The notes under the pieces were generated by a model. That model made no database searches and was not told where the DNA came from. It worked only from the letters and a program-made list of their open reading frames with translations. Below are positions 9,418-49,051 of a stretch of DNA of 64,000 nucleotides, in pieces (within the stretch, counting starts at the first letter, position 1; each line of letters opens with the position of its first letter). A program made the position numbers and the translations under genes. This DNA comes from a virus, in the IMG/VR virus record IMGVR_UViG_3300010233_000008. One strand, 5' to 3'.

Positions 9418-9538
9418 TCATTTCGATTATAGATAGGGATAGGTTTCATGGACCGAAAGCTCCTGCACGAGTTTCCCTATTTATTGAATAGTGCCTACCT
9501 CGCTAGTGCATAGCGAATTAACTTATAGGATATAAAAT

Positions 9539-9955: not shown

Positions 9956-10092
9956 CGATAAAGCGGCGGGATAATCGTGGGGTCGCTCTTCACGCATGAT
10001 AAGCTGTCGTCGGGTCAGCTTCCCGTCCGCTCTTTAACCCGAAATACGCACACGTCTCCCGTCCGTGGGCATTAACTTAATAAGGATACCAA
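9956..10092 (+). promoter_or_regulatory. GC-rich structured leader upstream of major capsid gene with direct repeat TCCCGTCCG x2
   Basis: G+C rises to roughly 55-60% against a ~33% background; TCCCGTCCG at 10021-10029 and 10057-10065. Confidence 0.35.
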
Positions 10093-13939: not shown

Positions 13940-14572
13940 ATGTCAGAAAAATTAAAATACGGTCCCGATTGTTTCGACTACAATTATTATAATTCCAATT
14001 TTTCGGAAGCAATGAGATATGATAGTATATCTCAACAACACGAGTTAAAATATAAATTTGATTTTATACAAGATTTTGGAATTACATATAATTCGATATT
14101 ATTTGTCGGGTGTGCGACCGGGAATGAACCAAGATATTTTAGGAATAATGGTAAAGATGCTCAGGGTTGCGATATAAGTAAATATGCAATCAGCCAAGCC
14201 GATTCATCCATTTCTTCTAATATAAGAGAATATGATGGCGAAAAAATATCTTGGCAAGAAGACAATTCTATAGACGTTGTTTGCGCCTTCGATGTTCTAA
14301 CTATTATACCAAAAGAACAAAGAGAAAAATTAATCTCTGAAATGATTAGGGTCGCGTCTAAATTGATAGTTATTAGAACTACATTAAAGGTTCCGGACGA
14401 CTTGACAGATAGTGAATTTGATGGTATAGATGGATACTTATTCAAGCTGGAAACTTTGGCATATTGGGATAATATTTTTACAGAAAATAAAAAGCTCTGG
14501 TTAAAAAAGGCAAAAATTTATTCCATCAAGCATAATCATCGTGAAGCTATAATCGGTTTTGAGAGAGAGTAA
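13940..14572 (+). CDS. class I SAM-dependent methyltransferase (210 aa)
   Basis: motif I ILFVGCATGNE, acidic motif II (QGCDIS) and motif III-like VVCAFDVL. Confidence 0.55.
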   Translation: MSEKLKYGPDCFDYNYYNSNFSEAMRYDSISQQHELKYKFDFIQDFGITYNSILFVGCATGNEPRYFRNNGKDAQGCDISKYAISQADSSISSNIREYDGEKISWQEDNSIDVVCAFDVLTIIPKEQREKLISEMIRVASKLIVIRTTLKVPDDLTDSEFDGIDGYLFKLETLAYWDNIFTENKKLWLKKAKIYSIKHNHREAIIGFERE

Positions 14573-16998
14573 TGGATAGGATCGCTATCATTCAGCTTTG
14601 CAGATTCGGAGATATAGTCTCAATTCTCCCGATTGCCAAATACTTATCAAAAGATAATGAAGTAACAATAATCTGTCATGAAGATTTTGCGGGAATACTT
14701 GATGCAGTTAGTTATGTAAAAGTACAAACATTAAGTACGCATCATAGGGATTTGGTTGGAGCGATTGCTAAGGCTAAATTAGAAGGATACGATCAAATAT
14801 TAGTTACTCAGAATATGGGTAACAATAATCGTATTCCTTATGAAACTGATAATTATCAATGTCAACAATGGGCAAGAGCCGGATTCCTAGATAAGTTTCA
14901 TGATCTACCTTTAATCTTCGATAAAAGAAATAAAGAATTTGAAAATAAAGCCCTAAAACTTTTCTTACCCAAAGAAGATGGACGCCCATTATTAGGCTAT
15001 TCCTTACATGGAATTAGTTCTATCTATCTAAGATGGAAGGAACAAGAAGATTGGATTAAAAAAACATTTGGCAAGACTCATAGATTGATGAATTTTGGCG
15101 ATATTTGTACGGGTCAAGTTCATAATCTTTTGGGATTAATTGAGAAGTGTGATAAGTTAATAAGTATCGACACACTTCATTTACACTTAGCTTATGCGAC
15201 GAATACTCCGACTATAGCTTTGGTTGACGATAATCCACAAAAAAGAAGTGAGCCAAGAAAACATTGGATAGAAAATGTAACCTATATTGAGAGTATTACC
15301 GATATAGGGCGAGAAAAAATAAGTAATGCAGTTTATGACAAACCAAAATTAGGACGATTTTCTAAATCTATTTTCGTTCCTAAACCCGAATCAGAAAATG
15401 ATAATCGGGTTGCCATAATTGAACTAGCTCGATATGGGGATATAGTTAATGTTTTACCTATAGCTTATGATCTCCATAAAAAAGGTAATGAAGTTCACTG
15501 GTTTGTTCATCCTAATTTTGCCGATATTTTAGAAGCCGTTTCTTATGTTAAGGTTCATAAATATGGAGGATCGGATAGGGATGTTCAGGGCACATCAGAT
15601 TATGCTAGAAAACTAGGATTTAAGCGAGTCTTAGAATTACAAGTTAATGGCAATAAATTACCTTCTCCGATTGAATGTGAAAATTTCATTACGCAAAGTT
15701 GGGCTAGAGGCGGATATTTAGATAAGTTTCACGAATTGCCTTTAGTGTTTGATGAAAGAAATATTGATTTTGAAAATGATGCGCAAAAGGGATTGCCATA
15801 TACCCACAAAAAGGAAACGATTGCCTATTCTCTTGAAAGTCATTCATCCCCAATGCCAGAAAATAAAAAATTTGAGCAATGGATAATCAAAGAATTTGGG
15901 GATAAATTTAATCTGTGGAATATTGGGATATTAAAGCTAAAAAAGCCTCAATATCTTATTGGTATGTTGGAAATTGCTGGTATATTGATTTCGGTTGATA
16001 CCCTTTCCCTTCACTTATCCTACGCAACTAATACTCCAGTAATCGCCCTCGCTCCCGACCATAACACTCAAAATTATAAAGAGCGTTATAAATGGTATCA
16101 AAGCGAACCAAGAAATAACTGGATTGAAAGAGTTACTTATACTGATGCCTTAGAGAAAAAAGGTCAAGACAAAATAATCGCTGCCGTAAATGGGAAAAGG
16201 GAATTTGGTAAACTTACTCGTTCATTTGAAAAGTTTAAGTTGGATCGAATAGTTCACGCCGTAGAATGGCATATCCCTCCCCAACAAGATGAAAGGCGTA
16301 GACTTTTATCCGCACATAAAACTTGGGAGTCAGCTAGAAATTCAGATAATTCTTGTAAATTAGTTATAGTTGATACGGATAAAGCTAAGCGAACAAGCAA
16401 AACAGAATTAGGAGATAATCGCACACTTCCTTTTCTCCATGATATAATTGAATCAGGAATAAAAGAGTGTCAGAAAAACGACATACTTCTTCTTACAAAT
16501 TCCGATATATGTTTAACTCCCGAAGTTTCTACAATAATTAGAGCTAAATTAGCTAAAGAACCATGCTGTTTTTCTCGAAGGATAGATGTTCAGAATGCGG
16601 ATATTCCTAAATCATTAAGAATGATTGCTGGAATAGAGCCTCATCCCGGAACCGATTTATTTGCTTTTAGAACTTCATGGTGGGAGAAAAGAAAGAAGGA
16701 TTTTCCTGATTTGCTTGCAGCTTGTGAGGGTTGGGATTTTGTATTTAGACATATAATGTTATGGGATAACCCGAAAGCAGAGATACAGCCACCAATTATT
16801 TATCATGAATTACACAGAGCATACTGGTATAGAGGAGACGTTATTAACTCAAACCCCGGACAAATCTACAATAGAGAACTCGGTAGAGAATGGGCAATCA
16901 AATACGGATATGATGACGCCCTTAATCCAGAATGCCAAGGTGGACTCTTCAAGCTCGACGGACATTTTAGTAGAAAAACTCCCACAAAAACTAGCTGA
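14572..16998 (+). CDS. three-domain glycosyltransferase: 2 x GT9 (heptosyltransferase-like) + C-terminal GT-A-like domain (808 aa)
   Basis: domain 1 IAIIQLCRFGDIVSILP ... SIDTLHLHLAYATNTPTIALV; domain 2 VAIIELARYGDIVNVLP ... SVDTLSLHLSYATNTPVIALA (GT9 N-terminal R.GD..P and C-terminal DTG.HLA.A...P motifs); third domain LVIVDTD...LLLTNSD. Confidence 0.7.
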   Translation: MDRIAIIQLCRFGDIVSILPIAKYLSKDNEVTIICHEDFAGILDAVSYVKVQTLSTHHRDLVGAIAKAKLEGYDQILVTQNMGNNNRIPYETDNYQCQQWARAGFLDKFHDLPLIFDKRNKEFENKALKLFLPKEDGRPLLGYSLHGISSIYLRWKEQEDWIKKTFGKTHRLMNFGDICTGQVHNLLGLIEKCDKLISIDTLHLHLAYATNTPTIALVDDNPQKRSEPRKHWIENVTYIESITDIGREKISNAVYDKPKLGRFSKSIFVPKPESENDNRVAIIELARYGDIVNVLPIAYDLHKKGNEVHWFVHPNFADILEAVSYVKVHKYGGSDRDVQGTSDYARKLGFKRVLELQVNGNKLPSPIECENFITQSWARGGYLDKFHELPLVFDERNIDFENDAQKGLPYTHKKETIAYSLESHSSPMPENKKFEQWIIKEFGDKFNLWNIGILKLKKPQYLIGMLEIAGILISVDTLSLHLSYATNTPVIALAPDHNTQNYKERYKWYQSEPRNNWIERVTYTDALEKKGQDKIIAAVNGKREFGKLTRSFEKFKLDRIVHAVEWHIPPQQDERRRLLSAHKTWESARNSDNSCKLVIVDTDKAKRTSKTELGDNRTLPFLHDIIESGIKECQKNDILLLTNSDICLTPEVSTIIRAKLAKEPCCFSRRIDVQNADIPKSLRMIAGIEPHPGTDLFAFRTSWWEKRKKDFPDLLAACEGWDFVFRHIMLWDNPKAEIQPPIIYHELHRAYWYRGDVINSNPGQIYNRELGREWAIKYGYDDALNPECQGGLFKLDGHFSRKTPTKTS

Positions 16999-18731: not shown

Positions 18732-19301
18732 TTACTTTTTCTTCTTTGGTTTCTTGGTTGGCTTGATGGTTGGATCAAAAGTTTTATTTATTGGTTCATT
18801 GGGATTAAAAACCATTTTGGGAATTTCTGGAACATAATAATTATATTCCTCAACTTTAGCAGATTGAATAAATCTAAGTGATGCTATTTCTGCCTCAACT
18901 TTTCTTCCGACATATTGTGCCAATAAACTAGCTTGTTCTCTTGACCAAAATCCCATACCAAAATATTGTGGAGAAAATCTAATTTGTACTGCATATTCTT
19001 CACGATAAGAATTATCAGCAAAGAATGAAATTCTGGTTGCCCGATCTACGATTGGTCCAACAACTTTATCAATTTTTTCTTGACACTCATTTCGCAATTT
19101 ATTCATTGCCCATTCATGGTCGCTTTGCCATATTTTAAGTCTAGATTCATATTGCTTTAGAAATTCTTTATTAGAATTTTGCAAAATCTTTTCGTGATTA
19201 CAAAAACAAATAGGTCGGAAATCCCAAAGCCAACCGAAAAAAGATTTCCCCGCACGAATCCAAGGGTAAGTTGTGTCTAGATAAAGTTTATCTTTTTGCA
19301 T
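18732..19301 (-). CDS. hypothetical protein with Lys-rich C-terminus (189 aa)
   Basis: - strand ORF divergent from 19360 gene. Confidence 0.45.
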   Translation of the reverse strand: MQKDKLYLDTTYPWIRAGKSFFGWLWDFRPICFCNHEKILQNSNKEFLKQYESRLKIWQSDHEWAMNKLRNECQEKIDKVVGPIVDRATRISFFADNSYREEYAVQIRFSPQYFGMGFWSREQASLLAQYVGRKVEAEIASLRFIQSAKVEEYNYYVPEIPKMVFNPNEPINKTFDPTIKPTKKPKKKK

Positions 19302-19359
19302 CCCTCAATTATACATTAACCTTTTTGAAAGTCAATACTAAATTCAATAAATTTTCTCA

Positions 19360-22300
19360 ATGTCAAAATTAGACGACTTAAAACAAAAATTAAATAAAAA
19401 CAAACCGAAAAGGATGAAATTCGCCGGTCTTTCGGTCATAATCGAAAATCCCGTAGACAGTATAAGAAAAGGTGTAAATTCTAAAGGAAAAAGTTGGGCT
19501 ACTCGTCTTAGCCATCCTTATGGGTATCTGGAAAAAGGAGTCGGTGCGGACGGAGAACAATTGGATTGCTTTTTGGGTAATCATCCAGAAGCAAAAGATG
19601 TTTATATCGTGCATCAGAATTCGTTGGACGGCAAGTATGATGAGGATAAATGTCTGCTAGCATTCCCTTCCGCCGAAGAGGCAAAGAAAGCATACTTATC
19701 CAATTACGACACCTCCGATTATTTTCGATCAATGACAACTATTCCGATGAATAGTTTCAAGAAAATGCTTACTACCGAAAAACCCGGAAGCATTAAATGG
19801 ACTAGAAAGCAAAGAAGGAATCACAAATCGGAAGCGATGTTTTCAACCAATACCGAAAATTTTGATGCCGACACGAAAGAAAAATGGTTGACAATTGGCG
19901 GTCACTCTGGACCAGAAGGTAAGCATGAAGGCGGATCACATATAGAAATTTCTGGTGATGGAGATATTGAAAAAGGTCCACCCGATCTAAAAAATAAACC
20001 GATTAGTGACCTAAAATCTAAAATGTCTTCCAAAATTACTCCCGGTGTTCCCCAAATAAATTCCCCCAAGCCATCTTCCGCTCCCGCACCCAAAATAATT
20101 CCTAATTCCCAATACGATCTTAAAACCGGCAAGCAAATTAATTCCCAACCTACTCCTCAAAAGGTAGAAGCTAAGCCAATTCAACCTCCAGTCGAACATC
20201 CATTTTTCGATAAAAAAATAAATGATGTTGCCAAAACGGATCAGGATAACGACAAATGGTGGACCAAACCCAATCAAGTAAGCGACCCCAATAAATTAAA
20301 TCCAGTTCAGCAAGGACAAAAAAATATTGCTAACGATAAAGAATCGCAATCAGCAATGAAAAATTCGCATGATTTGAAAAATTTCGGTTGGGGGAAGATG
20401 GCTCAAGCTGGAAATGCTAATGCGGATAAAATAAATAATTTGGCTGCACAAAAAGGCATAACGGCGAATCAAGCCCAAAGTCAATTATCCCAAAATATTT
20501 CTCCCCAATTAGCTCAACAAAATTTACCTAATAAAAATGCTAGTGGAATTCCGGGGTCATCCCCGATTAATCAATCTCAGGATAATCCTACTCCTAGTTC
20601 AGTAAATCCCCCACAGGAGCAATTGCAACCTAATGTCGGTGCGCCAAAAGGACCAATAAACGATAAGCCTACAAATAAATCTCCCGAATCTTCATTATTC
20701 TATCCTCCCGGCAAATTCTTTCCGCCCTCCGAATCTAAAGCTCCAGTTAATGCTCCGCAAGTTCCTCCACAAGAATTATTAAGTGATAAACCTATGTCTG
20801 GAGTTCAGCGAATTACTCCCGATGATTTTGCTAAAGGATGGGATGGAATAGAAGGTTGGGTTGGAGCTAGAGATAATCCCGAACATGCTGAAAATATAGC
20901 TAAGGGATTAAATCAATTAGGTGATAGAGAGCATGCCGTAATGCAACATTCTAATGGCAAACATATAGTTGTTAGTAGACCAAAACAAGGTCAAGCGAAC
21001 CAAGGTTTAGGTCAGAATCAACTTAGTCAAACTCCCCCAGAACAAATTCAGCCTAATACCCAAATTCCTAATGAAGAAATGCAAGAGCAATTAGGATCAA
21101 CTGGTGCGGCAACTCCCGCCATCAATAATCCTAATGAAATAAAACAGCAAGAAAATAAACCCGCTTCGCAAGAGCCATTATTTGATAATCCAAAAACTCC
21201 ATCACAAGAACCGTTACCAGAGGAACCAGAACAAAAATTAGGTGGAGTTCAAGATTATAGTAAAGCCTCAATTGAACGCCAATTATTAGATCATTATCAA
21301 AAGAATGGTGGAAATGCTGACGATCAAGATGAAAAATTAACCTCAGCTTATCATTCCCCATTTACTTTTAGACGAACAAGTAAAACTAAATCAGGATTTC
21401 CCGGTGAAATAGATAGGATGCTAGAAGGTCCGAACGGTAAAAAATTAAGAAGGCTTTTAAGTCTAACCGATAATCCAGAATCTTCTCAAGGTGCGGATTT
21501 AATGGGAGATTTAGGGGTAGATGGATATGAGCAATTACTTAATAGAAAATTAGGTGGCAAGAAAAATACTACATTAAATTCCGCATTAGATTTTGCCAAG
21601 AAATCTGGCGATCCGCAAATGGAATTCTTGGCTAAGCTTCATAGTATAACTCCCGATAGGCAAGATAAGAAGCCACAAGAGGTTATAAATACTCAGGCAT
21701 TACAAACTGGCGAAGCTGCGACTATTCATGGTATTCCTGTTACTATTAATGAGGATGAAAATGGGAATAAATCTATAGATGATGGTGGACATTTGCCGAG
21801 CGTTCCGTTAGAATCTATGAAACAATTACCTATTGATAAGGGTAGTTTACATAATACGGAAGAGCCGGAAGTTGATGAAAGTCCATTTGCTCCCGATGAA
21901 TTAAATCCAGAGGAATTAAATGAAAAAACGGATGAAGAAAGTCAGCCCGAACCAAGTCAAGAAAATGCTCCGGTTGAGTCTTCCCAAGATAATTCTGGAC
22001 AAGAAAATGGAATTGACTCTGGAATTGGAGAAGAAAATCCAGAAATTAATAAAGATGAGCAAGGGAATCGACCCGATACAAATGTTAATCCCACAACGGA
22101 ATCTCCCGAAATTAATCCAAGCAATCAAATCGGGAAAAGTGAAGGGGAAAATAGGGATAGTGAATCTAAGCCTCAATCAATTCCTCCAATTAAATCAAAT
22201 AAATTAGAGGAAAAACCAAATGAAAAAATCCCCGAAAAAGAAAAGTCAAAAGCTGTCCCGCAACATTCAGAAACTACTAATGAATCCCATAAAGATTTGG

Positions 22301-23349
22301 GCAAAGAAAAACAAAATGTCGGTTCGTCTGATTCAAAAGAAAAAGTAAATGAAAGTCCGAAAGATAAACCAGCCCCACAGTCTCCGGTCACTTCTAATCC
22401 ACCGGCTAAAAATGAAGTTAAAGAAGAAAATCCCAAAGCTTCCGCGCAAATTCATCCTCCCTATAAACATCCATTAAGAGATATCTACGAAAAAGCTAAT
22501 CCGAGATCGCAACAAGCGTCTAAAGAGGCAAATAAAAGCGGAAATAAAGTAAATATTCAGGAATCCGGAATTCAGGCTCGCGGATCGGCAATGGGTTTGC
22601 ATGGAGCTAAAAAGCGTGAAGATGCAATCAATAACGCTATAAAACAATATGGTCCTACCGAAAAAGCAATGCAAGTTGCCGTTGCCAATAGTTATAGACA
22701 ACCATTAAGTAAATCAGAAAAACAATATTTTAAGGATTATGCGGAGTCTTTAGCCAAGAGCAAAAACCCTTCAACATCCGTTGAAACTCCCCCAAATAAT
22801 GAAACTGCAAAATCTCCCACTACATCAGAAATACCGGAAGTCGATAACACAAAACAACTAGGCTTATACGAAAAAGATAAATCTGGTAATCCCAAAGAAG
22901 TAGGAGAAAAACCCGGACAATCCAATTTATTCAACCCCAATAAATTTAAGACAGAAGAAAAACCCAAAGAAGAAAAAGTCGCCCCTCAATTTGACCCAAA
23001 ACATACACAAGAAATGTTCCCCAATAAGGAACAATCGAAACCTATAGATCAATTAAAAGAAAAGATGAATCCAGACAAGAATCCCGTCAAAATGTCGGGA
23101 TCGCCAATTGACCAATTAAAAGATAAAATGCAGAAAAATAAGGGGTCTGGATATGATATTAATGAAGACGATGGATATATAGAAATTAAGCGAAATGGAC
23201 AAACAATTGCGACCGGAACTAGACAGCCAAATGGCAAAATAGGGGATTTACAATATAAACATCCTGTACACCAAAAGTTAGATGCTATAAGAAATGCCGT
23301 GCAACGCGCAATTAATGAACACGAGAAAAATCCACCTAGTCTAAAATAA
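19360..23349 (+). CDS. giant protein: inorganic-pyrophosphatase-like N-terminal domain + ~1200-aa intrinsically disordered P/Q/N/K/E-rich region (1329 aa)
   Basis: N-domain SVIIENP..., SHPYGYL, GADGEQLDCFLG, DGKYDEDKCLLAFP align with family I PPase motifs (VVIEIP, YP.NYGYI, DGDP.DVLV, DEAGEDAKLVAVP); remainder low-complexity with short tandem repeats (PIDQLKEKM/PIDQLKDKM). Confidence 0.6.
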   Translation: MSKLDDLKQKLNKNKPKRMKFAGLSVIIENPVDSIRKGVNSKGKSWATRLSHPYGYLEKGVGADGEQLDCFLGNHPEAKDVYIVHQNSLDGKYDEDKCLLAFPSAEEAKKAYLSNYDTSDYFRSMTTIPMNSFKKMLTTEKPGSIKWTRKQRRNHKSEAMFSTNTENFDADTKEKWLTIGGHSGPEGKHEGGSHIEISGDGDIEKGPPDLKNKPISDLKSKMSSKITPGVPQINSPKPSSAPAPKIIPNSQYDLKTGKQINSQPTPQKVEAKPIQPPVEHPFFDKKINDVAKTDQDNDKWWTKPNQVSDPNKLNPVQQGQKNIANDKESQSAMKNSHDLKNFGWGKMAQAGNANADKINNLAAQKGITANQAQSQLSQNISPQLAQQNLPNKNASGIPGSSPINQSQDNPTPSSVNPPQEQLQPNVGAPKGPINDKPTNKSPESSLFYPPGKFFPPSESKAPVNAPQVPPQELLSDKPMSGVQRITPDDFAKGWDGIEGWVGARDNPEHAENIAKGLNQLGDREHAVMQHSNGKHIVVSRPKQGQANQGLGQNQLSQTPPEQIQPNTQIPNEEMQEQLGSTGAATPAINNPNEIKQQENKPASQEPLFDNPKTPSQEPLPEEPEQKLGGVQDYSKASIERQLLDHYQKNGGNADDQDEKLTSAYHSPFTFRRTSKTKSGFPGEIDRMLEGPNGKKLRRLLSLTDNPESSQGADLMGDLGVDGYEQLLNRKLGGKKNTTLNSALDFAKKSGDPQMEFLAKLHSITPDRQDKKPQEVINTQALQTGEAATIHGIPVTINEDENGNKSIDDGGHLPSVPLESMKQLPIDKGSLHNTEEPEVDESPFAPDELNPEELNEKTDEESQPEPSQENAPVESSQDNSGQENGIDSGIGEENPEINKDEQGNRPDTNVNPTTESPEINPSNQIGKSEGENRDSESKPQSIPPIKSNKLEEKPNEKIPEKEKSKAVPQHSETTNESHKDLGKEKQNVGSSDSKEKVNESPKDKPAPQSPVTSNPPAKNEVKEENPKASAQIHPPYKHPLRDIYEKANPRSQQASKEANKSGNKVNIQESGIQARGSAMGLHGAKKREDAINNAIKQYGPTEKAMQVAVANSYRQPLSKSEKQYFKDYAESLAKSKNPSTSVETPPNNETAKSPTTSEIPEVDNTKQLGLYEKDKSGNPKEVGEKPGQSNLFNPNKFKTEEKPKEEKVAPQFDPKHTQEMFPNKEQSKPIDQLKEKMNPDKNPVKMSGSPIDQLKDKMQKNKGSGYDINEDDGYIEIKRNGQTIATGTRQPNGKIGDLQYKHPVHQKLDAIRNAVQRAINEHEKNPPSLK

Positions 23350-23958: not shown

Positions 23959-24381
23959 TTACTCCATCATTTTATTGACTTGATCTTTTGCTGTTTCAAT
24001 AATATTTGACATTTTTTGTAATGGGGATGGTCCATTACTTCTAATTTCTTTAAGAATTTTACAGCAAGGATACGGTTGTCCGTTTCTTCTCGGAATATGA
24101 TTTGGGCATTTACGACAAACTTTCATAGGTACTGAATATCCCGCTTTCATTCGCGGATATTCTTCTGACGGAGATTGCGGACAATTGAACGCAGAAAGCT
24201 GACCCAAAGTAAGACTTGCATCTTTTCCATCAACTGTTTTATATGACTTAATAAAAACGCCCTGATTATTTGTGGTTCCTTCATTTCCAAAATGCCATCC
24301 ATTAGGCAAACGTCTAATCTTTCCGTTTGCCGACTCAACTAACGACTTACCCATAACATTAAATATATTAGTTCCACGCAT
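23959..24381 (-). CDS. hypothetical protein (140 aa)
   Basis: - strand ORF ending the antisense block; divergent from promoter at 24450. Confidence 0.45.
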   Translation of the reverse strand: MRGTNIFNVMGKSLVESANGKIRRLPNGWHFGNEGTTNNQGVFIKSYKTVDGKDASLTLGQLSAFNCPQSPSEEYPRMKAGYSVPMKVCRKCPNHIPRRNGQPYPCCKILKEIRSNGPSPLQKMSNIIETAKDQVNKMME

Positions 24382-24449
24382 TATTTGATTATCTCATAAA
24401 TTTTAGAAATGTCAAGTATTTTTGCTAAAAAACTTAAAAAAGATTTAAG

Positions 24450-27781: not shown

Positions 27782-27853
27782 GCCGGTGTAGCTCAGAGGT
27801 AGAGCCGCGATTTTGTAAATCGCAGGTCATAGGTCCGAATCCTATCGCCGGAT
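27782..27853 (+). tRNA. tRNA-Thr (anticodon TGT)
   Basis: manual cloverleaf: acceptor GCCGGTG, D-stem GCTC/GAGC, anticodon stem GCGAT/ATCGC, loop TTTGTAA, T-stem ATAGG/CCTAT; G1-A72 mismatch; no encoded CCA. Confidence 0.75.
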
Positions 27854-27910: not shown

Positions 27911-27983
27911 TCTATGTTATGCGAGTGTAACTCAATAGGTAGAGTGTCGGATTTCCAATCCGGTTGTTGTCAGTTCGATTCTG
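27911..27983 (+). tRNA. tRNA-Gly (anticodon TCC)
   Basis: manual cloverleaf: acceptor GCGAGTG/CATTCGC, D-stem ACTC/GAGT, anticodon stem TCGGA/TCCGG, loop TTTCCAA, T-stem GTCAG/CTGAC, T-loop TTCGATT. Confidence 0.85.
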
Positions 27984-28008
27984 ACCATTCGCTCTAGGAG
28001 TAAAAAGT

Positions 28009-28826: not shown

Positions 28827-29459
28827 ATGGAGGCTCTAGGATTCTACCTTAAACAACAAGTAATGGATAGACATGAAACTCAAGGTGAATCGGGGGGTGA
28901 GCCTTGGCAATCTAAAAAGATTAAAGAATGGGGATATGATGATGGTAGAGCAATTCTTACTGGTAAATCAGCGGAAATGCTTAATAGATGGTTCTCTTAT
29001 GCCGAAGTAGAGGGAAATATAGGAACCGCTGTTGTAGCTAATTCCGCACCTTATTCTTATGTTCAGGAATTAGGTACTGTAGGCAAGGGTGGAGTTTTAC
29101 CCGATATTGTTCCAGTTAATGCTAAAGCTTTATTTATTCCTATTACAGATAAAGGAATAAGCTATGCCAAAAATGTATTAAATGTCGCTAGAATAAGTAG
29201 GGGGATAGGGGGGGTTAAATTTAGTTTACCTAATGAAATTCCTTCTGGACCTAAAGCTAAAGGGATATTATCTGGTAGTGATTTAATAAAGGGGAGATTG
29301 AAAGATGGGAAATTACAAAAATTAACTGATGCGGGGTGGGTTGATGGAACGCCAGACTTTATTTTTCTCTCGAAGTCTTCGATCCCTCCACGCAAACAAT
29401 TACCTACTTCTCCACAAGAAAGATTGGCTCAGCAAAAGTTTTTGATTAGTGAGACCTAA
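28827..29459 (+). CDS. hypothetical structural protein (210 aa)
   Basis: Gly-rich ORF at start of tail region. Confidence 0.45.
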   Translation: MEALGFYLKQQVMDRHETQGESGGEPWQSKKIKEWGYDDGRAILTGKSAEMLNRWFSYAEVEGNIGTAVVANSAPYSYVQELGTVGKGGVLPDIVPVNAKALFIPITDKGISYAKNVLNVARISRGIGGVKFSLPNEIPSGPKAKGILSGSDLIKGRLKDGKLQKLTDAGWVDGTPDFIFLSKSSIPPRKQLPTSPQERLAQQKFLISET

Positions 29460-29667
29460 GATTATACTGCATTCTAATAGTATCTACTAAAAATCCCAAG
29501 GCGACAGAATAGAAAAATACTGTAATTCCTCGCAATATAATATGCAATGAAATCGGGACATGAAAATAAAAAATAACGCTTGGATATATAATTAGTCCAA
29601 GCAACCAAATAGGGACTATTGTTATAAAACTTTTCTGACTATTTGTCATATCTTCCCCTAATATCAT
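29446..29667 (-). CDS. small membrane protein (73 aa, 2-3 TM)
   Basis: hydrophobic segments; possible holin or exclusion protein. Confidence 0.4.
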   Translation of the reverse strand: MILGEDMTNSQKSFITIVPIWLLGLIIYPSVIFYFHVPISLHIILRGITVFFYSVALGFLVDTIRMQYNLRSH

Positions 29668-29827
29668 TAGCTAATACTTCCATTAATGATGCAATCGAAC
29701 CGATAACACAAAATATTCCCACAGAAAGATTCCGATCTTTTGTGGATAAATAAATACTGATACATCCTAATGCCAAAAGAATTACACAAATTATTTTTGC
29801 GAAATTTTTAGTTTTAATTCCCATCAA
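29639..29827 (-). CDS. small membrane protein (62 aa, 2 TM)
   Basis: hydrophobic segments; promoter immediately upstream on - strand. Confidence 0.4.
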   Translation of the reverse strand: MMGIKTKNFAKIICVILLALGCISIYLSTKDRNLSVGIFCVIGSIASLMEVLANDIRGRYDK

Positions 29828-29830
29828 CTT

Positions 29831-29858
29831 ATTCTACCATAAAAAATCTATTTGTCAA
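29831..29858 (-). promoter_or_regulatory. sigma70-like promoter (- strand) TTGACA-16-TAGAAT
   Basis: reverse complement of 29853-29858 = TTGACA, of 29831-29836 = TAGAAT. Confidence 0.4.
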
Positions 29859-29866
29859 GTAAATAA

Positions 29867-30397
29867 ATGCCGTCAACTCCAAATTTAATTTTACAATATT
29901 TTTGCTTAGGAATTATTGCAAAATTAGGAATTGATAGTCAAAGTTGTTTCCCGTCTATAACTCCGGCTTTAGATTTAGGTTGGGAAGGGGATGTACAAAT
30001 TCAAGTATGTCCCGGAAGCGCTGCTCCCGATGGCGGGGGCAAGGGAAATCAAGATGGTGGAGCATTAATAATCAGACAAAATTTTAATCTGATAGTATTT
30101 TATAGATTAAATATTGATCCTCATGGAAGATCGGATCAGATATTAACTCAAAATGCTACGGGATTAACGGATTTTGTAGAAAAAATGAAAGATATATTCT
30201 TAAATACATATCTAAATAATATGTCGATTGAAAGAATAAGGTATGAAGGGGAAACACAACCAGTATGGACCGATGCCGAAAGAGGGATCGTTCAGAAACA
30301 AGTAACTTATTCGGCTAATTATGGTAGGGATTTGCCCGGAATAACTTTGACTAATCAGGATATAGTTAGCCAGATAATTACGGCGAAATCGCCTTAA
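29867..30397 (+). CDS. hypothetical tail-region protein (176 aa)
   Basis: ORF; no recognisable motif. Confidence 0.45.
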   Translation: MPSTPNLILQYFCLGIIAKLGIDSQSCFPSITPALDLGWEGDVQIQVCPGSAAPDGGGKGNQDGGALIIRQNFNLIVFYRLNIDPHGRSDQILTQNATGLTDFVEKMKDIFLNTYLNNMSIERIRYEGETQPVWTDAERGIVQKQVTYSANYGRDLPGITLTNQDIVSQIITAKSP

Positions 30398-31056
30398 TCA
30401 TTAGCTGCGGGGTTATGGTTGTTCGTTATCCATCTTTTAGTTGTTAATGCTTCTTCGTCGGACATTTTAAGTTTATTTTTCCTTTTTGTAATTGTACTTC
30501 TGCTTAATCCAGTAATTTCAACCCATTCTGACACACATTTTGTTTCGCCATTTAGGGTTAGATTAAAGTTGTTTTTCTTGTTTCTATTTTGTTCCGTAGA
30601 AGTTGCCCACACGCAATTATCGGGATCATAATTTCCATTACTGTTTTTACGTTCGATGCTGTATTTATTCGATGGACGTTCTCCCATATCCTCTAGAAAA
30701 TTTTCAAAAGATTGCAGCCATCTTTCACATACACGGATTCCGCGTCCCCCATAATCTTTGAAGTTTGCCGCAGTGGGATTGCCGCAGCGATGTTTCATTG
30801 CCTTCCATATTTTATAGGTGGTTGTTTGTGACATATTATGCGTTGATCTAGATTTGCAAATTTCTATTTTGTGGCATCCGCACGATACAATTTTTCCTAA
30901 TTTTAGATTACTTCCATAACAAAATATATGTTCGTTTGGATTGCAATCACAAACGCAATCCCACATAGGCTTTCCTTCCGAATTATTAAACGTAGCTCGT
31001 TTAATCACCGTTAATTTCCCAAACTTCATTCCCGACAAATCCACAAATTTTCCCAT
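30394..31056 (-). CDS. free-standing HNH-family homing endonuclease paralog A (220 aa)
   Basis: N-term FGKLTV...W.C.CDC...SCGC zinc motif; core YGGRGIRVCERWLQSFENFLEDMGERP...SIERKNSNGNYDPDNCVWAT..EQNRN; C-term LNGETKCVSEWVEITGLSRSTI HTH; antisense to tail genes. Confidence 0.65.
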   Translation of the reverse strand: MGKFVDLSGMKFGKLTVIKRATFNNSEGKPMWDCVCDCNPNEHIFCYGSNLKLGKIVSCGCHKIEICKSRSTHNMSQTTTYKIWKAMKHRCGNPTAANFKDYGGRGIRVCERWLQSFENFLEDMGERPSNKYSIERKNSNGNYDPDNCVWATSTEQNRNKKNNFNLTLNGETKCVSEWVEITGLSRSTITKRKNKLKMSDEEALTTKRWITNNHNPAAND

Positions 31057-31138
31057 AAATTTCCTTTCGTAAAGTGTGGATTATATCAGAAGTTATTTAC
31101 TTTGTCAACTCTAACGTAAGTCATTACAGGAGCACACT

Positions 31139-31678
31139 TTGGCGTATATCGCTGGCCACCATACGGCATATTTTTCTTTAACAACTTTTTCTGCTGGTCC
31201 CACATATTTTAATATAGGCAGTACGGAAAATGGGTTCAATCACCGTGAAACTGACCACTATGAGGATGTTGTGGACGACGCTGGCGGTTCCGCCATCGCC
31301 GATGGCATTAACCAAGGACGAGACCTTATTGTTACTGGAACGTCCATAGAAGCAGACAACATTAATAATGTTCTATATCAGGGCACTCCGCTAGGTAGAT
31401 TCAATATTAATGTTGGTCAAACTGCTAATAGTTTGGCTGGCACTCTGGTATTAACTCCGGTTGCCGGTACTCCCGCCGCTGCTGCATTGGGTGTTGGAAT
31501 GAGTCGAGTTTATTATGCTGCTCTTATCATAAATGATGTTGAGCAAATGCTTAGTTCTAAACTAAGAAAAATTCCAGTAACTTGGCGATGTTATCCGAGT
31601 ACATCGGAAGGCTGGAAGGTTTGGGACATTTTAAGTACGCCCGCCGGAGTTTCAGCAGCCAATCCCACCGGCCCGTAA
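31139..31678 (+). CDS. hypothetical tail protein (179 aa; start may be downstream of ORF-track start)
   Basis: Gly/Ala/Thr-rich ORF followed by strong terminator. Confidence 0.45.
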   Translation: MAYIAGHHTAYFSLTTFSAGPTYFNIGSTENGFNHRETDHYEDVVDDAGGSAIADGINQGRDLIVTGTSIEADNINNVLYQGTPLGRFNINVGQTANSLAGTLVLTPVAGTPAAAALGVGMSRVYYAALIINDVEQMLSSKLRKIPVTWRCYPSTSEGWKVWDILSTPAGVSAANPTGP

Positions 31679-31691
31679 CCCCTTATTATTC

Positions 31692-31737
31692 ACTCACTAT
31701 AAGTCTAATCACTTATAGTGAGTTTTTCTTTATTTTT
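31692..31737 (+). terminator. rho-independent terminator
   Basis: perfect 12-bp stem ACTCACTATAAG/CTTATAGTGAGT (31692-31723), 8-nt loop, then TTTTTCTTTATTTTT. Confidence 0.8.
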
Positions 31738-31754
31738 AACCCGAAAGGATCATA

Positions 31755-32108
31755 ATGCGTCTTGCCGACATTAAGCCTACTAAATTTACTATTGAAATAG
31801 AGGCTGGAAATATTAAAACCTATAGCCCTTGGGAAACTCAGGAAAAACTTGATAAGTTAAATTCTGAATCTCAACGCAAGGCTTTAGAGGGTCAGTCATT
31901 TAATTCTACTTACGATAATATTCGTAAGGCATTTGACTTTCCGACACAAGAAGAAGTTGATGCTGCTGGTGAACCAAAACCTAGAACATTATCTTATGAT
32001 GAATGTATGGCGGTTCAGGTTAGCTTGATGGAATTTATAGCTAATTTGGAAGTATCAAAAAAAGCACGAGACCTTATGCAGAGATTCTCCACTTCTACCC
32101 AGCGATAA
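31755..32108 (+). CDS. hypothetical protein (117 aa)
   Basis: ORF with SD (AAAGGA) 8 nt upstream. Confidence 0.5.
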   Translation: MRLADIKPTKFTIEIEAGNIKTYSPWETQEKLDKLNSESQRKALEGQSFNSTYDNIRKAFDFPTQEEVDAAGEPKPRTLSYDECMAVQVSLMEFIANLEVSKKARDLMQRFSTSTQR

Positions 32109-32339
32109 CGCTAGAGGCATTAAGGTCTTTACCAATTGATGAGCGGGTAGGACTCCAAAATAATATGCTAGAAATAAAGGCTAGAGAACGATTGGAAAAT
32201 ATCGTTGATATCGGAATTGCGTTTTCTAGCCCCGATGATTCGCGTGAATTGCTCATGTACCTCGCCGAGCAAGCCTACGGACATGATGATAATGCCTATG
32301 GTCAAGTTTTAGAGGGTATTACTCGTAAACGAAGGTAAT

Positions 32340-33047
32340 CTATTTCATTAGGTGGAATGGAATAGATTTTTCTGTTTTCTTTTTAGGAGTAGTTAATGCT
32401 CTTTCTGGTGCCCATCCAGCAATTCTTATTCTAGTCCATACCAAATCATAACTCATGCCTAAAAATTCACACCATTCGGTTAGTTCCATTGTTTTGTTAC
32501 CAATTGTAATTTTTTCGATAGAATTTTCTCGATTATGATTTTGAATTTTTGCTGTAGCCCACACACAATTTTCTTTATCATAATTACCGTTTCTATTTTT
32601 TCTTTCTATTGAATGCTCGGAAGACGGACACGGACCAATATCCTCATAAAAGTTTTGGAAAGACTCTAGCCATCTATCGCACATTTTAATTCCTCTCCCA
32701 CCATATCTAAGATAATTTGGAGAATTTTTATTGAGACAGCGAGTTTTTATTCCTACCCAACAATAGTATTCCTTGCTGTTCTTTTTGGTGTGCCTTGTAT
32801 GGCCATGAATTAAATTTGCTTTTATTCTACTTTCCCTCATTAGACATCCACAAGATTTAACCGAACCAAACCGCAAATTTCCGCCGTCAACTATTTTATT
32901 GGTATTGCCGCAATCGCAATTACAAAACCATTTGCTTTTAGTTCTATTTTTTGATTCATTGTCTACCCTCGAAACTACTAGGAGCCGCCCAAATCTTTTT
33001 CCGGTTAAATCTATGAATGTTGCCATATTAAACCTAACATATACCAA
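32340..33047 (-). CDS. free-standing HNH-family homing endonuclease paralog B (235 aa; alternative start 33026)
   Basis: same architecture as A: FGRLLV..WFCNCDCG..SCGC; YGGRGIKMCDRWLESFQNFYEDIGPCP...SIERKNRNGNYDKENCVWAT..QNHNR; C-term HTH. Confidence 0.65.
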   Translation of the reverse strand: MVYVRFNMATFIDLTGKRFGRLLVVSRVDNESKNRTKSKWFCNCDCGNTNKIVDGGNLRFGSVKSCGCLMRESRIKANLIHGHTRHTKKNSKEYYCWVGIKTRCLNKNSPNYLRYGGRGIKMCDRWLESFQNFYEDIGPCPSSEHSIERKNRNGNYDKENCVWATAKIQNHNRENSIEKITIGNKTMELTEWCEFLGMSYDLVWTRIRIAGWAPERALTTPKKKTEKSIPFHLMK

Positions 33048-33068
33048 ACAAAATAGGATGTCAAGTCA

Positions 33069-34343
33069 ATGGGAATAAATTATAGCGAATTGTGGCCAGC
33101 ACTTGGTTCCCTTGTAAAATGGTCAAACGCTTTTATTTCCTATCAAGGCAATCAATTGATGGGAAATAGCGGCGAATTGACTGACGTACAAACCGTCTTT
33201 GAAAGTTATAATCTAAATTTAATTCCTTCTTTTACCACCCAAGTTTCTGGTCAAGCTAACGCTATGGCTGGATGGATATCTGCCTTAACCAATATCTTTA
33301 ACACTGTTTTAGCTTCTCTTCAATCTCAACTAAACGCTCCAAACAATAACAGCCAAACAATCCTACCATTATTATATGCCAGCATGGTCTCGTCCACGGA
33401 GACTATGTTGGCTACAACTATTTCTGCACCCAGCATAACCGTAGGATCAAATACCGGAAATGGTGTACTACTTCTATCTATTAATAATAACTTGGGTCAG
33501 GTAGATCAAAGAATTATTAATGAAACAGTACAATTGGTGTGTACTAACGATCAATTTTCCGGTACGGCTGCTGGATCGGAACGATTTTCTATTACGGGAT
33601 TCCCTACACAGCAACCTACCTCTTATCTCCCTCAAGGTAATGGAAATGGTCCCAATCTAACGGTTGCAGATTCAAATAATCTAATTAATAATGGTAATTT
33701 TGAGTCATGGACCAATACAAATACTCCTAATAATTGGGTGACTACTGGTACAGTGGGCACTAACATATTACAAAGTACAACTGCTCATTCTGGAAGTTTT
33801 GCTTTAGAATTTGCTGGGGATGGGACAACTACAAATATTAATGTTTCACAAAATGTTTTTAGTAGATTAAATACCACTACTATTTATGGAATGAGTGTTT
33901 GGTTAAGAAAAGCTGGTACGGTTTCAGGTGGCTCTAATCTAGCAGTTAATCTAACTGGTACGGGGTTTTCTACCATCAACTTATTTAATGCTGATCCGGC
34001 GACATTAACTACAAGCTATCAACAATTTCATATTTATTTCCCAACTGGGATTGAATTTGGAAATAATATGGCGGTTGAGGCAAATTGGACAAGCGCTAAT
34101 TCTGCTGGAGGATCGGCGGTAATTTTAATTGATGATTTTGTATTAAATACTGCAAATTCATTTGGCAATGTTCAGTATAGTATTTATCGCGGTTCAACTG
34201 ATTTCTTAAAAGGTGATAATTTTAGTGTAGTTACGGCGGTAAATTCACCAGCTATTTGGAGTAGTTATTTTGCAAGATTCTATAATTTTCAAATGCCAAC
34301 TGTGGCATCGTCGCCAAGCGTAGCCGAATCGCTTGCGGAATGA
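33069..34343 (+). CDS. tail fibre / receptor-binding protein with CBM-like domain (424 aa)
   Basis: N-terminal Ser/Thr/Asn-rich beta region; central NLINNGNFESW..NWV..G and later GDG..TN motifs typical of carbohydrate-binding modules in phage fibres. Confidence 0.55.
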   Translation: MGINYSELWPALGSLVKWSNAFISYQGNQLMGNSGELTDVQTVFESYNLNLIPSFTTQVSGQANAMAGWISALTNIFNTVLASLQSQLNAPNNNSQTILPLLYASMVSSTETMLATTISAPSITVGSNTGNGVLLLSINNNLGQVDQRIINETVQLVCTNDQFSGTAAGSERFSITGFPTQQPTSYLPQGNGNGPNLTVADSNNLINNGNFESWTNTNTPNNWVTTGTVGTNILQSTTAHSGSFALEFAGDGTTTNINVSQNVFSRLNTTTIYGMSVWLRKAGTVSGGSNLAVNLTGTGFSTINLFNADPATLTTSYQQFHIYFPTGIEFGNNMAVEANWTSANSAGGSAVILIDDFVLNTANSFGNVQYSIYRGSTDFLKGDNFSVVTAVNSPAIWSSYFARFYNFQMPTVASSPSVAESLAE

Positions 34344-34963
34344 GCCTTTGGTATAAATTTTGGCGTTACAATTGCTTTTTCTATAGACCATCCACGGTAA
34401 AGTCTGCTACTAATCGTTTGTCTATCAATTCCAATTTCTTCCGCCCAATCAGTTAGACATTGGGTTTTTCCATTAAATGTAATCATTCTGTTTCTAGAAT
34501 AATTTCTTAATTGTTCTCTTTTTGTTGTCCACCGGCAATTATCTTTTTCATAATTTCCGTTATTGTCAATACGATCTATACTTAATCCTTCCGGTTTTTC
34601 GCCCATATCTTCTAAAAAGTTTTCAAATGATTCCCGCCATCTTTGGCAAACACTAATTCCGCGTCCGCCATATTTTGGATATGATTTTTGTGCTGGATTT
34701 GTGCAGCGATTTATCATATTTGCCCATATCATATATGTTTTACTTTTCTTTTTACCGATTGCATGTCCATGAGACAATGGGTTGGTATATCCATTTAATT
34801 TTCTCAAACATCCACATGATTTTGTACGTCCGTGAATTAATCTGCTTCCCATAACGATAGTTTTTTTGCCGCACTCACATTGACAAAACCAAAAAGCATT
34901 GCCGTTGTATGTGACATCATAATTTCTACTTACAACAGTTAGTTTTCCAAATTTCTGTCCCAT
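34289..34963 (-). CDS. free-standing HNH-family homing endonuclease paralog C (225 aa from ATG 34963; ORF track 35074)
   Basis: MGQKFGKLTVVSR aligns with starts of A and B; YGGRGISVCQRWRESFENFLEDMGEKP...SIDRIDNNGNYEKDNCRWTT; start 34963 avoids overlap with 35050 gene. Confidence 0.65.
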   Translation of the reverse strand: MGQKFGKLTVVSRNYDVTYNGNAFWFCQCECGKKTIVMGSRLIHGRTKSCGCLRKLNGYTNPLSHGHAIGKKKSKTYMIWANMINRCTNPAQKSYPKYGGRGISVCQRWRESFENFLEDMGEKPEGLSIDRIDNNGNYEKDNCRWTTKREQLRNYSRNRMITFNGKTQCLTDWAEEIGIDRQTISSRLYRGWSIEKAIVTPKFIPKAHSASDSATLGDDATVGI

Positions 34964-35049
34964 TACGTTTTTAACTTTTCTCACAATAAATCCTTTCAAT
35001 AAAATTATGAAACATAACATTATTATAACAAGAAAAACTTTTAAGTCAA

Positions 35050-48950: not shown

Positions 48951-49051
48951 AAATTACCTTATTGCCGGAAATAGGATTTGCACCTATACGCTCCGAAGAG
49001 CAAATCATTTTAAATGATTCTTGTCTGCTAATTTCAACATTCCGGCTTAAT

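Follow-up and report, generated by a model that had tools for sequence, protein, structure and literature searches.

The Type IIP enzyme PacI (PDB 3ldy/3m7k) is a 142-aa homodimer with two Cys4 zinc sites and belongs to His-Me finger group 20, which is described as containing PacI and giant-virus proteins (Jablonska et al. 2017). It has no catalytic His and uses a Tyr of the Ω-loop instead (PMC5714182, PMC4081073, PMC3384342). Phage genes termed "PacI-like HNHE" were already recognised in Skunavirus as variable, free-standing genes (Yu et al. 2025, PMC12724721). In these lactococcal phages they lie in the morphogenesis module, were classed by their best HHpred match to PacI and are presumed to be homing endonuclease genes (HEGs); they are rare (2/268), and the one that was assayed gave no marker exclusion (PMC12724721). 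A second group of described proteins comprises PLE CapR, the T5orf172 HEGs of ICP1 and the CasPR anti-CRISPRs. These are modular proteins with an N-terminal zinc module and an exchangeable effector domain, which is T5orf172/GIY-YIG in the ICP1 HEGs and AP2 in the CasPRs and is missing from CapR. CapR and the CasPRs are repressors, not nucleases, and the cysteines of CapR are needed for DNA binding (PMC8096241). Finally, HNH_3/I-HmuI-like and T4 Mob-type HEGs have the His-Me finger superfamily fold and combine nuclease and DNA-binding modules; they are free-standing, intergenic and sporadic and often have their own promoters.

Three genes of a novel phage, H1, H2 and H3, share traits with each of these systems. 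They are located in a window of 64,000 nucleotides, which is the whole stretch of viral DNA that was analyzed (IMG/VR record IMGVR_UViG_3300010233_000008). The genes and the promoter-like sites preceding them are:

30394..31056, minus strand: H1, 220 aa, ATG start and TAA stop, with CapR-type, PacI-like ββα-Me and helix-turn-helix (HTH) domains
32340..33026, minus strand: H2, a 228-aa paralog, start revised to ATG 33026 (the maximal ORF extends to TTG 33047)
34289..34984, minus strand: H3, a 231-aa paralog, start revised to GTG 34984 (the maximal ORF extends to 35074)
31080..31108, minus strand: promoter-like site of H1, TTGACA-17-(TG)TATAAT, 12/12 match
33036..33064, minus strand: promoter-like site of H2, TTGACA-17-TATGTT, 10/12 match
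35022..35049, minus strand: promoter-like site of H3, TTGACT-16-(TG)TATAAT, 11/12 match

The ORF list confirmed what had been read from the sequence alone, namely three minus-strand ORFs that fill gaps between genes of the opposite strand. H1 is flanked by g29867 (176 aa) and g31139 (179 aa), H2 by g32165 (57 aa) and g33069 (424 aa), and H3 by g33069 and the tape-measure-like g35050, all on the plus strand. Each gene is antisense and intergenic and converges tightly on the stop codon of the upstream plus-strand gene: H1 and g29867 overlap by 4 nt, H2 stops 1 nt past g32165, and H3 overlaps g33069 by 55 nt via a non-conserved tail; the final ~18 codons of H3 run antisense across the 3' end of g33069. 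The description of the flanks as tail genes is plausible, as g35050 (1106 aa) has the look of a tape measure protein and Phage_tail_S was weakly matched by a homolog of g28827; family searches with the genes flanking H1-H3 returned no informative matches. An Rfam search returned nothing in the region of H1-H3 and no intron family anywhere in the window, and by this and by their position they are stand-alone ORFs, neither intron- nor intein-borne.

Near-consensus promoter-like sites were enriched in the 6 kb that were scanned, where three sites with at least 11/12 matches were observed and 0.33 were expected. All three lie on the minus strand, each directly upstream of an antisense gene. For H2 the 10/12 score is by itself not above chance, and the site is supported by its position. 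H1-H3 are each predicted to have their own near-consensus sigma-70-type promoter. H1 has a GAAAGGA ribosome-binding site 3' of the promoter-like site and 7 nt ahead of its ATG. In H2, TTG 33047 falls within the promoter, and ATG 33026 is therefore the most likely start; since this ATG follows the -10 element by 10 nt, only a very short leader would result. For H3, the most likely start is GTG 34984 and not ATG 34963, which had been chosen in the sequence-only reading, because the GTG is preceded by a GAAAGGA identical to that of H1, lies downstream of the promoter and gives an N-terminal lead of eight residues like those of H1 and H2. Other antisense ORFs with their own promoters are also present in the window.

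The central domain was compared with PacI and with canonical HNH proteins, using the following segments:

30568..30657, minus strand: catalytic-type loop and helix of H1, IERKNSNGNYDPDNCVWATSTEQNRN (E-R...Y...N...N)
32523..32609, minus strand: catalytic-type loop of H2, IERKNRNGNYDKENCVWATAKIQNHN
34490..34579, minus strand: ββα-Me core of H3, IDRIDNNGNYEKDNCRWTTKREQLRN
59507..59875: a canonical HNH_3 gene of the same window, in contrast to H1-H3 (TIDHKC...EEN; PF13392, E 4e-9)

The AlphaFold2 (AF2) models were confident (pLDDT 87 and 83) and placed a β-loop-β-α unit exactly at the motif. In the H3 model the D-R dipeptide stands at the end of β1 and the Tyr in the Ω-loop, followed by β2 and the α-helix, so that the modeled domain has the ββα-metal core fold by which the His-Me finger superfamily is defined. 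PacI was the only clear structural neighbor of this domain. In PacI, the sequence of which was verified, the loop reads VD92-R93-S-D-SFEG-Y100-SPQ-N104, and in H3 it reads I-D-R-I-D-NNGN-Y-EKD-N with identical spacing. D-R instead of D-H, a Tyr at +8 from the Asp in the Ω-loop and an Asn at +12 are found in PacI VDRSDSFEGYSPQN, H3 IDRIDNNGNYEKDN and gp79 of phage PGN829.1 IDRIDAYKGYSPDN. The loop D/E-R-x-D-x4-Y-x3-N is common to H1-H3, and the D/E-R...Y...N motif was present in 120/123 homologs while the D-H variant occurred in 0/123. Alignments of 40 and 46 sequences showed an invariant Arg at the position of the catalytic His, invariant Y, N and N residues including helix N154, and a nearly invariant D/E130. 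By alignment and spacing, D/E130 and N154 would correspond to the PacI metal ligands D92 and N113, and the invariant helix Asn is likely the second metal ligand.

Overall similarity to PacI is marginal: hhalign gave E 0.018 and a probability of 2.6% with the motifs in the same register, and an hmmsearch of the family profiles against PDB sequences returned no match. For the PacI zinc sites, which flank the active site (CxxC at 4-7, 24-27, 63-66 and 109-112), the aligned columns show no corresponding Cys in the family, which conserves a set of its own, H65, C87, C106 and C143 (numbering of the 224-aa H3). H1-H3 also did not match Pfam HNH (PF01844), HNH_3 (PF13392) or AP2 (PF00847) at E<1, and HNH_3 was touched by 1/40 homologs (E 0.002). 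This sets them apart from HNH_3/I-HmuI-like and Mob-type HEGs, which have retained D-H as general base and are recognised by Pfam HNH_3/HNH. The earlier designation of the genes as HNH-type holds at the level of the superfamily only, given the invariant Arg in place of the catalytic His, the lack of a match to any Pfam HNH model and the tyrosine-variant enzyme PacI as the closest structure. The motifs quoted with that designation were essentially correct, except that H1 has SNGNY and H2 RNGNY in place of NNGNY, and that in H2 VC is replaced by MC and EDMG by EDIG.

On either side of this domain, H1-H3 carry modules that PacI does not have:

30874..30957, minus strand: CapR-type cysteine cluster of H1, CVCDC...SCGC
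34808..34885, minus strand: CapR-type cysteine cluster of H3, CQCECG...KSCGC, matching the CasPRIB1 peptides GNAVWKCVCECG and KSCGCL
34340..34474, minus strand: C-terminal β-hairpin and three-helix HTH-like module of H3, NGKTQCLTDWAEEIGI...GWSIEKAIVTP

The N-terminal Cys spacing of H1-H3, CxCxC-19-CxC, equals that of CasPRIB1 (C33/35/37...C56/58), and GNAVWKCVCECG and KSCGCL of CasPRIB1, which were reconstructed from mutagenic primers, correspond to GNAFWFCQCECG and KSCGCL of H3. The region had been called a Zn-knuckle; by these features it is a zinc DNA-binding domain of the CapR type. The Pfam CapR model PF21817 matched none of H1-H3 and only 1/40 homologs (E 8.9e-5). Like in CapR-domain proteins, where C-terminal HTH repeats are optional, the HTH-like module occurs in several copies in some homologs, and family members gave weak HTH_30 and HTH_10 matches. 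H1-H3 share the modular build and the N-terminal zinc module with the CapR-domain proteins and differ from them in having a PacI-like ββα-Me domain as effector.

The family to which H1-H3 belong comprises ~204,000 cluster representatives. Neither Pfam nor NCBIfam has a model for it, and an NCBIfam search with H1-H3 was empty; the 'HNH endonuclease' families phrog_374 and phrog_3377 matched H1-H3 and the ortholog of H2 in the related phage L001 with E 1e-47 to 1e-72 (H1 versus phrog_374: E 5e-64). Homologs are annotated as 'HNH endonuclease', 'AP2 protein', 'dUTPase' or 'hypothetical', and some as transcription factors. The phage family is not part of His-Me finger group 20 as described, and the Skunavirus genes resemble H1-H3 by class and position, which does not imply a shared sequence family. 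In phage PGN829.1 a member of the family separates two fragments of DNA polymerase I, and a member is also found inside the polymerase region of APSE-1. In the literature we found no nuclease or homing activity demonstrated for any member of this exact family.

We consider it probable that H1-H3 are old members of a large phage family of free-standing, PacI-like homing-endonuclease-type genes, each forming a self-contained cassette. Such a cassette, consisting of a host-type promoter, a ribosome-binding site and the ORF, would have entered the structural operon of the tail region at a junction between genes, in antisense orientation, and would be transcribed early by the host polymerase. The CapR and HTH modules may confer sequence-specific DNA binding, and the His-Me finger domain may nick or cut at or near the bound site. 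With the general base His replaced by Arg, the Tyr eight residues past the metal-binding Asp/Glu would either activate the nucleophile or act as one. Putative targets are the insert-free versions of the same junctions in co-infecting relatives, and repair from the HEG-bearing genome would then copy the cassette, as in homing or marker exclusion. The missing canonical His, the lack of conservation of the PacI zinc sites and the fact that relatives with the CapR module repress without cutting count against this explanation. The Skunavirus protein without marker exclusion, the distance of the related phages and the flank-like divergence between H2 and its L001 ortholog also weigh against it.

The main alternative, which we regard as unlikely, is that H1-H3 are domesticated, catalytically dead relatives of nucleases that bind specific DNA sequences through the CapR domain and the HTH, use the ββα domain as a DNA-contacting scaffold and, like PLE CapR and the CasPRs, repress host defence genes, competitor phages or the phage's own late operon. 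The Arg stands in place of the catalytic His in every family member, the N-terminal domain is shared with the proven repressors CapR (PMC8096241) and CasPRs (bioRxiv 10.64898/2026.02.23.707548), a host-type promoter precedes each gene, as in morons, and the annotations of some homologs name an AP2-domain protein or a transcription factor. The Skunavirus protein without exclusion points in the same direction, and the SMAD MH1 domain is a precedent for a His-Me finger turned pure DNA binder. However, the central domain is unlike that of the CasPRs: the AP2 motif of CasPRIB1 with its essential R138 and R149 (FIGRFTKKEDAIKAR) is absent, and no counterpart of FKRKHHFIGRFTKKEDAIKARLEAEEKYF was found in H1 and H3, the two that were scanned. 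Moreover, the invariance of the PacI-matching metal ligands and Tyr in more than 100 homologs is hard to explain for a scaffold, and relatives occupy classic HEG positions such as the split DNA polymerase gene.

The age and distribution of the genes were analyzed next to their domains. Alignment of the three genes bore out the shared architecture, with pairwise tblastn E values of 1e-44 to 1e-49, and no fourth copy was found within the window. The copies are 40-43% identical in amino acids and 50-54% in nucleotides. Identical codons at conserved residues amount to only 42-55%, the level expected from shared codon bias alone, so that synonymous sites are saturated. The paralogs of H3 rank behind 100 outside homologs, those of H1 rank 28th and 30th, and the best match of H2 is the gene at the corresponding site in L001. 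The comparison indicates old, independently diverged copies and not recent duplicates. Their GC and GC3 are host-like.

In about nine related metagenomic phages the flanking genes abut without an insert. This applies to all three sites in L002, L005-7, L014 and the P0136 contig, to sites A and B in L008 and to site B, the middle one occupied by H2, in L011. L001 was the sole relative with a homolog and carries it only at site B; its divergence from H2 is about that of the flanking genes, which fits long vertical residence. In L003, unrelated antisense genes occupy the corresponding intergenic sites. HEG-less alleles, which had been proposed as a check of mobility, were thus found at all three sites, and the related phages do not show the uniform occupancy that would speak against mobile genes. 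H1-H3 are accessory genes. As the relatives are distant (flanking genes 33-59% identical in amino acids), presence and absence shows this accessory status and not active homing; closely related phages free of the inserts did not turn up, the nearest g33069 homolog being 49% identical.

Besides the homing-type cassettes that we favor, the genes could encode active nucleases that serve mainly as weapons against competing or superinfecting phage DNA, expressed early or from a prophage via the host-type promoters and giving marker or superinfection exclusion, with no need for self-copying. Strong independent promoters and three diverged copies with intact key residues and host-like composition, suggesting long residence under selection, agree with this, as does the marker exclusion given by some phage HNHEs when expressed alone. 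The inserts of L003 and the other self-promoted antisense ORFs also agree, and because of them the junctions behave as general slots for accessory genes. Nevertheless, the window yielded no lysogeny genes, and sequence data do not separate this role from homing, as both normally coincide; we rate a role mainly as weapons as quite improbable. That a single canonical HNH homing endonuclease gene spread recently within the genome, as originally proposed from three paralogs in 4.6 kb with the same orientation at the same kind of site, is refuted by the divergence of the copies, to which outside homologs are closer, and by the absence of the canonical His from the family, and we give it almost no weight.

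Free-standing HEGs in phage structural modules are commonplace, and the basic finding is therefore an ordinary one. A farther-reaching possibility, for which we see only a slim chance, is that the family represents a distinct, major class of phage HEGs that are targeted by CapR and cut with a PacI-style Tyr. In one published reading of PacI the Tyr itself is the nucleophile. If this were true here, covalent protein-DNA intermediates would arise. To our knowledge, homing endonucleases are not known to work in this way. The three intact copies, each with its own promoter and all within one tail-region operon, would then be a convenient test set. Since the CapR module is known from the repressors CapR and CasPR, the question of nuclease versus binder is a real one for hundreds of thousands of genes. 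The D-R...Y...N layout together with the CapR domain provides a precise architecture for annotators and clear mutants for biochemists, and the tail-region intergenic junctions of this phage behave as slots that can be reused by antisense cassettes with their own promoters.

The three antisense genes of the structural module were compared by tblastn and proved to be mutual paralogs (E 1e-44 to 1e-49, 40-43% identity), which bears out the sequence-only reading of three paralogous minus-strand ORFs; its listed motifs were also right in essentials. A fourth copy was not detected within the 64-kb window.

Antisense genes H1-H3 and their plus-strand structural-module neighbours
30394..31056, minus strand: H1, between g29867 and g31139
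32340..33026, minus strand: H2, between g32165 and g33069
34289..34984, minus strand: H3, between g33069 and g35050

Each of the three genes runs toward its upstream neighbour and ends close to that neighbour's stop codon, and the non-conserved C-terminal tail of H3 is encoded opposite the final 55 nt of g33069. The start of H2 should be revised to ATG 33026 and that of H3 to GTG 34984, since the latter is served by a GAAAGGA ribosome-binding site as in H1 and places, as in H1 and H2, 8 residues ahead of the conserved Gly. Among the flanking genes, g35050 encodes a tape-measure-like protein of 1106 aa; PHROGs and Pfam searches with the flanking structural genes gave nearly no match.

All three proteins match phrog_374 and phrog_3377 ('HNH endonuclease') in PHROGs with E 1e-47 to 1e-72. 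Pfam, NCBIfam and PDB-sequence HMM searches with the proteins and family profiles, a megablast search with the 12-kb region among deposited phages and an exact-match query with the H3 product called by JGI did not return a match. More than 5,000 family matches were obtained by word-indexed search and 203,851 cluster representatives at E<=1e-3 (80,546 at E<=1e-30) by exhaustive search. The family is present in 1,056-1,221 deposited phage genomes, under labels as varied as HNH endonuclease, homing endonuclease, AP2 protein, dUTPase and hypothetical protein. In alignments of 40 and 46 sequences, the CxC...SCGC cluster, H65, R86-C87, Y98, W109, D119, R131, Y138, N142-C143, W145 and N154 (numbering of the 224-aa H3) were invariant. 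As every one of these residues is kept in all three genes, none of them looks decayed.

In the same alignments the position of the HNH general-base His is always occupied by Arg. The pattern [ILVM]-[DE]-R-x-x-x4-Y-x3-N is kept in 120 of 123 homologs, none of which has the D-H variant. An AF2 model of H3 (mean pLDDT 87) consists of three domains. The first is a small β-barrel with the Cys cluster, the second a helical stretch leading into β128-131, a loop, β143-146 and α148-153, and the third a β-hairpin with three helices. A Foldseek search of the full model against PDB gave no match below E 0.3. The H3 loop SID-R-I-D-NNGN-Y-EKD-N has exactly the spacing of the restriction endonuclease PacI, whose PDB sequence reads ...GVD92-R93-S-D95-SFEG-Y100-SPQ-N104..., and gp79 of phage PGN829.1, a relative that splits a DNA polymerase gene, is nearer to PacI in this loop than H3 is (IDRIDAYKGYSPDN). 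Alignment of the family profile with PacI by hhalign gave the same register with weak statistics (E 0.018, probability 2.6%). According to three reviews, PacI itself has no catalytic His, and the part of general base or nucleophile falls to a Tyr of its Ω-loop (PMC5714182, PMC4081073, PMC3384342). The CxxC zinc ligands of PacI are not kept in the H1-H3 family, which has a different His/Cys set, and thus the central domain is PacI-like in layout. It is a superfamily-level relative, not demonstrated to be orthologous. The label 'HNH' therefore holds as superfamily kinship, but not in its canonical sense, given the invariant Arg in place of His in a PacI-like tyrosine variant. Two other genes of the HNH superfamily, of families different from H1-H3, were observed in the replication module, so that the phage carries at least five.

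59507..59875, minus strand: canonical HNH_3 protein (PF13392, E 4e-9; TIDHKC...EEN), His intact
57530..58303, minus strand: classical CxxC...HH...CxxCH HNH with a C-terminal HTH-like region

The N-terminal module, initially read as a Zn-knuckle, is better assigned to another domain. Anti-CRISPR proteins termed CasPRs were described in a 2026 preprint (bioRxiv 10.64898/2026.02.23.707548) as carrying a zinc DNA-binding CapR domain (C33/C35/C37...C56/C58), a central AP2 domain with essential R138 and R149, and optional HTHs. Three CasPRIB1 peptides were obtained by translating the mutagenic primers of that preprint. The first (GNAVWKCVCECGNEKEVLA) and second (LKRGYVKSCGCLAKENG) closely match their H3 counterparts (GNAFWFCQCECGKKTIVMG and LIHGRTKSCGCLRKLNG, respectively) with identical Cys spacing, and from this match the N-terminal module of H1-H3 is, as judged from sequence, a CapR-type zinc DNA-binding domain. 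The third peptide (FKRKHHFIGRFTKKEDAIKARLEAEEKYF) is a canonical AP2 motif and is missing from H1 and H3, the window proteins scanned for it. Membership of the CasPR family, suggested by the Cys spacing, was consequently ruled out: the central domain is AP2 in CasPRs, whereas H1-H3 have another domain in its place. In the CapR protein of PLE the cysteines are needed for DNA binding, and the domain was traced to homing endonucleases of ICP1 (PMC8096241). The exhaustive search revealed homologs with up to 11 CapR modules, which fits a role as a repeatable recognition unit. That modules are shuffled within the family is seen in gp79, where an AP2-like segment at the C-terminus (KWVGRITHLGKRIEI...) accompanies CapR and the D-R...Y...N core.

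The distribution of the inserts was analyzed by mapping the window genes onto contigs carrying relatives of g33069 (424 aa), of which about 22 were found at 38-49% identity; none was found among IMG/VR viral contigs. In L002, L005/6/7, L014 and the P0136 contig the structural genes abut at all three insertion junctions. L008 is insert-free at the first two (the third is unresolvable there) and L011 at the H2 site. L001 has one family member, located precisely where H2 lies; this gene is the best match of H2 (47%) and has diverged from H2 about as much as the flanking genes have. These insert-free relatives and the single L001 copy indicate that H1-H3 are accessory and sporadically distributed; the comparison with related phages envisaged in the sequence-only reading thus yielded the insert-free alleles it looked for, in relatives too distant to define homing sites at the nucleotide level. 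In L003 and L004, unrelated and unannotated antisense ORFs occupy the H2 and H3 sites, and those of L003 gave nearly no match in PHROGs and Pfam. This suggests that the tail-region junctions serve as insertion hot spots for accessory genes in general.

Antisense ORFs of L003 at or near the same junctions
9186..9977, minus strand: 263 aa
11218..11672, minus strand: two ORFs of 73 aa
7198..7584, minus strand: 128 aa

Elsewhere, gp79 splits the DNA polymerase I gene of the N4-like Escherichia phage PGN829.1 (L016, 1687..5109) into ORFs of 1818 and 696 nt, a family member lies inside the polymerase region of APSE-1, and another adjoins a helicase in Streptococcus prophages. 'PacI-like' HNH endonuclease genes had already been placed among the variable free-standing genes of Skunavirus in a 2025 study, in which the one gene tested caused no marker exclusion (PMC12724721).

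The proposed recent intragenomic spread was refuted. Pairwise nucleotide identity of H1-H3 is 50-54%, and only 42-55% of codons are identical at conserved residues, as a common AT-rich codon bias would predict. One hundred outside homologs rank above the paralogs of H3, and those of H1 rank 28th and 30th, so the copies are old. GC and GC3 of the three genes match the host genome. Recent duplication or gene conversion was rejected, as synonymous-site identity equals the codon-bias baseline throughout, including a 75-nt patch at 83% identity. Likewise, transposon-like insertion (apart from the paralogous cores, neither direct nor inverted repeats flank the genes) and intron association (two tRNAs only in Rfam) were discarded.

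Sigma-70-type consensus scoring over 29400-35400, with order-1 Markov resamples as background, placed all of the best matches on the minus strand immediately upstream of antisense genes. Three sites scored at least 11/12 where 0.33 were expected (p about 0.003), and the total count of weak sites was not above chance.

Promoter-like sites in 29400-35400
31108..31080, minus strand: H1, 12/12 with extended -10
35049..35022, minus strand: H3, 11/12
33064..33036, minus strand: H2, 10/12, a score by itself unremarkable
29858..29831, minus strand: 11/12, before two small membrane-protein ORFs

Being consensus matches, the sites of H1-H3 are predicted promoters; the best site of the L001 ortholog scores 9/12, none there being as strong as in the window. 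Terminators were not found 3' of H1-H3, hence the predicted transcripts would run antisense into structural genes. Immediately 3' of g31139 (179 aa) lies a hairpin with a 13-bp stem and a T-run after it (31692..31723, plus strand). It resembles an intrinsic terminator or an attenuator, such as would follow a gene with high expression, and g31139 may encode the major tail protein. Between g28827 and g29867, two overlapping antisense ORFs of 62 and 73 aa (29446..29827, minus strand) are hydrophobic and membrane-like, without informative family matches; counting these ORFs with their 11/12 site, this operon holds four self-promoted antisense inserts. Two further antisense ORFs, embedded in the plus-strand structural block and likewise lacking family matches, have 11/12 sites directly upstream, and the structural module therefore carries at least six self-promoted antisense cassettes.

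18732..19301, minus strand: antisense ORF of 189 aa, site at 19308..19335
23959..24381, minus strand: antisense ORF of 140 aa, site at 24388..24415

H1-H3 are probably self-promoted homing-endonuclease cassettes. The CapR and HTH modules would give their proteins a hold on DNA, putative targets would be cut by a PacI-style, tyrosine-assisted, one-metal ββα-Me site, and the outcome may be homing or marker exclusion directed at relatives that lack the inserts. That they are instead catalytically dead, CapR/CasPR-like sequence-specific binders would accord with the missing catalytic His and with repressor precedents, but we consider it unlikely, as every PacI-equivalent catalytic residue is invariant and the relatives behave in their genomes like homing endonuclease genes. 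A role primarily as weapons is more doubtful still and overlaps with the homing-endonuclease account, from which sequence data cannot separate it.

Further features of the window were noted. A giant protein of 1329 aa (19360..23349, plus strand) has an N-terminal minor-head/DarB-like region, and in relatives (L001 1..6763; L014 1..1795) it corresponds to polyvalent proteins 1854-2707 aa long that carry InPase, topoisomerase IB, LPD1 or SNF2-helicase domains. An 89-nt direct repeat (14869..14957 and 15700..15788, 78% identity) lies within an 808-aa ORF (14572..16998), and a 33-nt near-perfect palindrome (1301..1333) upstream of the portal gene.

tRNA genes
27782..27853, plus strand: tRNA-Thr(TGT), mid structural module
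27921..27994, plus strand: tRNA-Gly(TCC), mid structural module
48963..49046, minus strand: tRNA-Leu(TAA), boundary with the minus-strand early region

The finding of H1-H3 is real and biologically ordinary, these being genes of a known kind, and what changes from their first interpretation is that they represent a PacI-like tyrosine variant, carry a CapR domain and are old copies.
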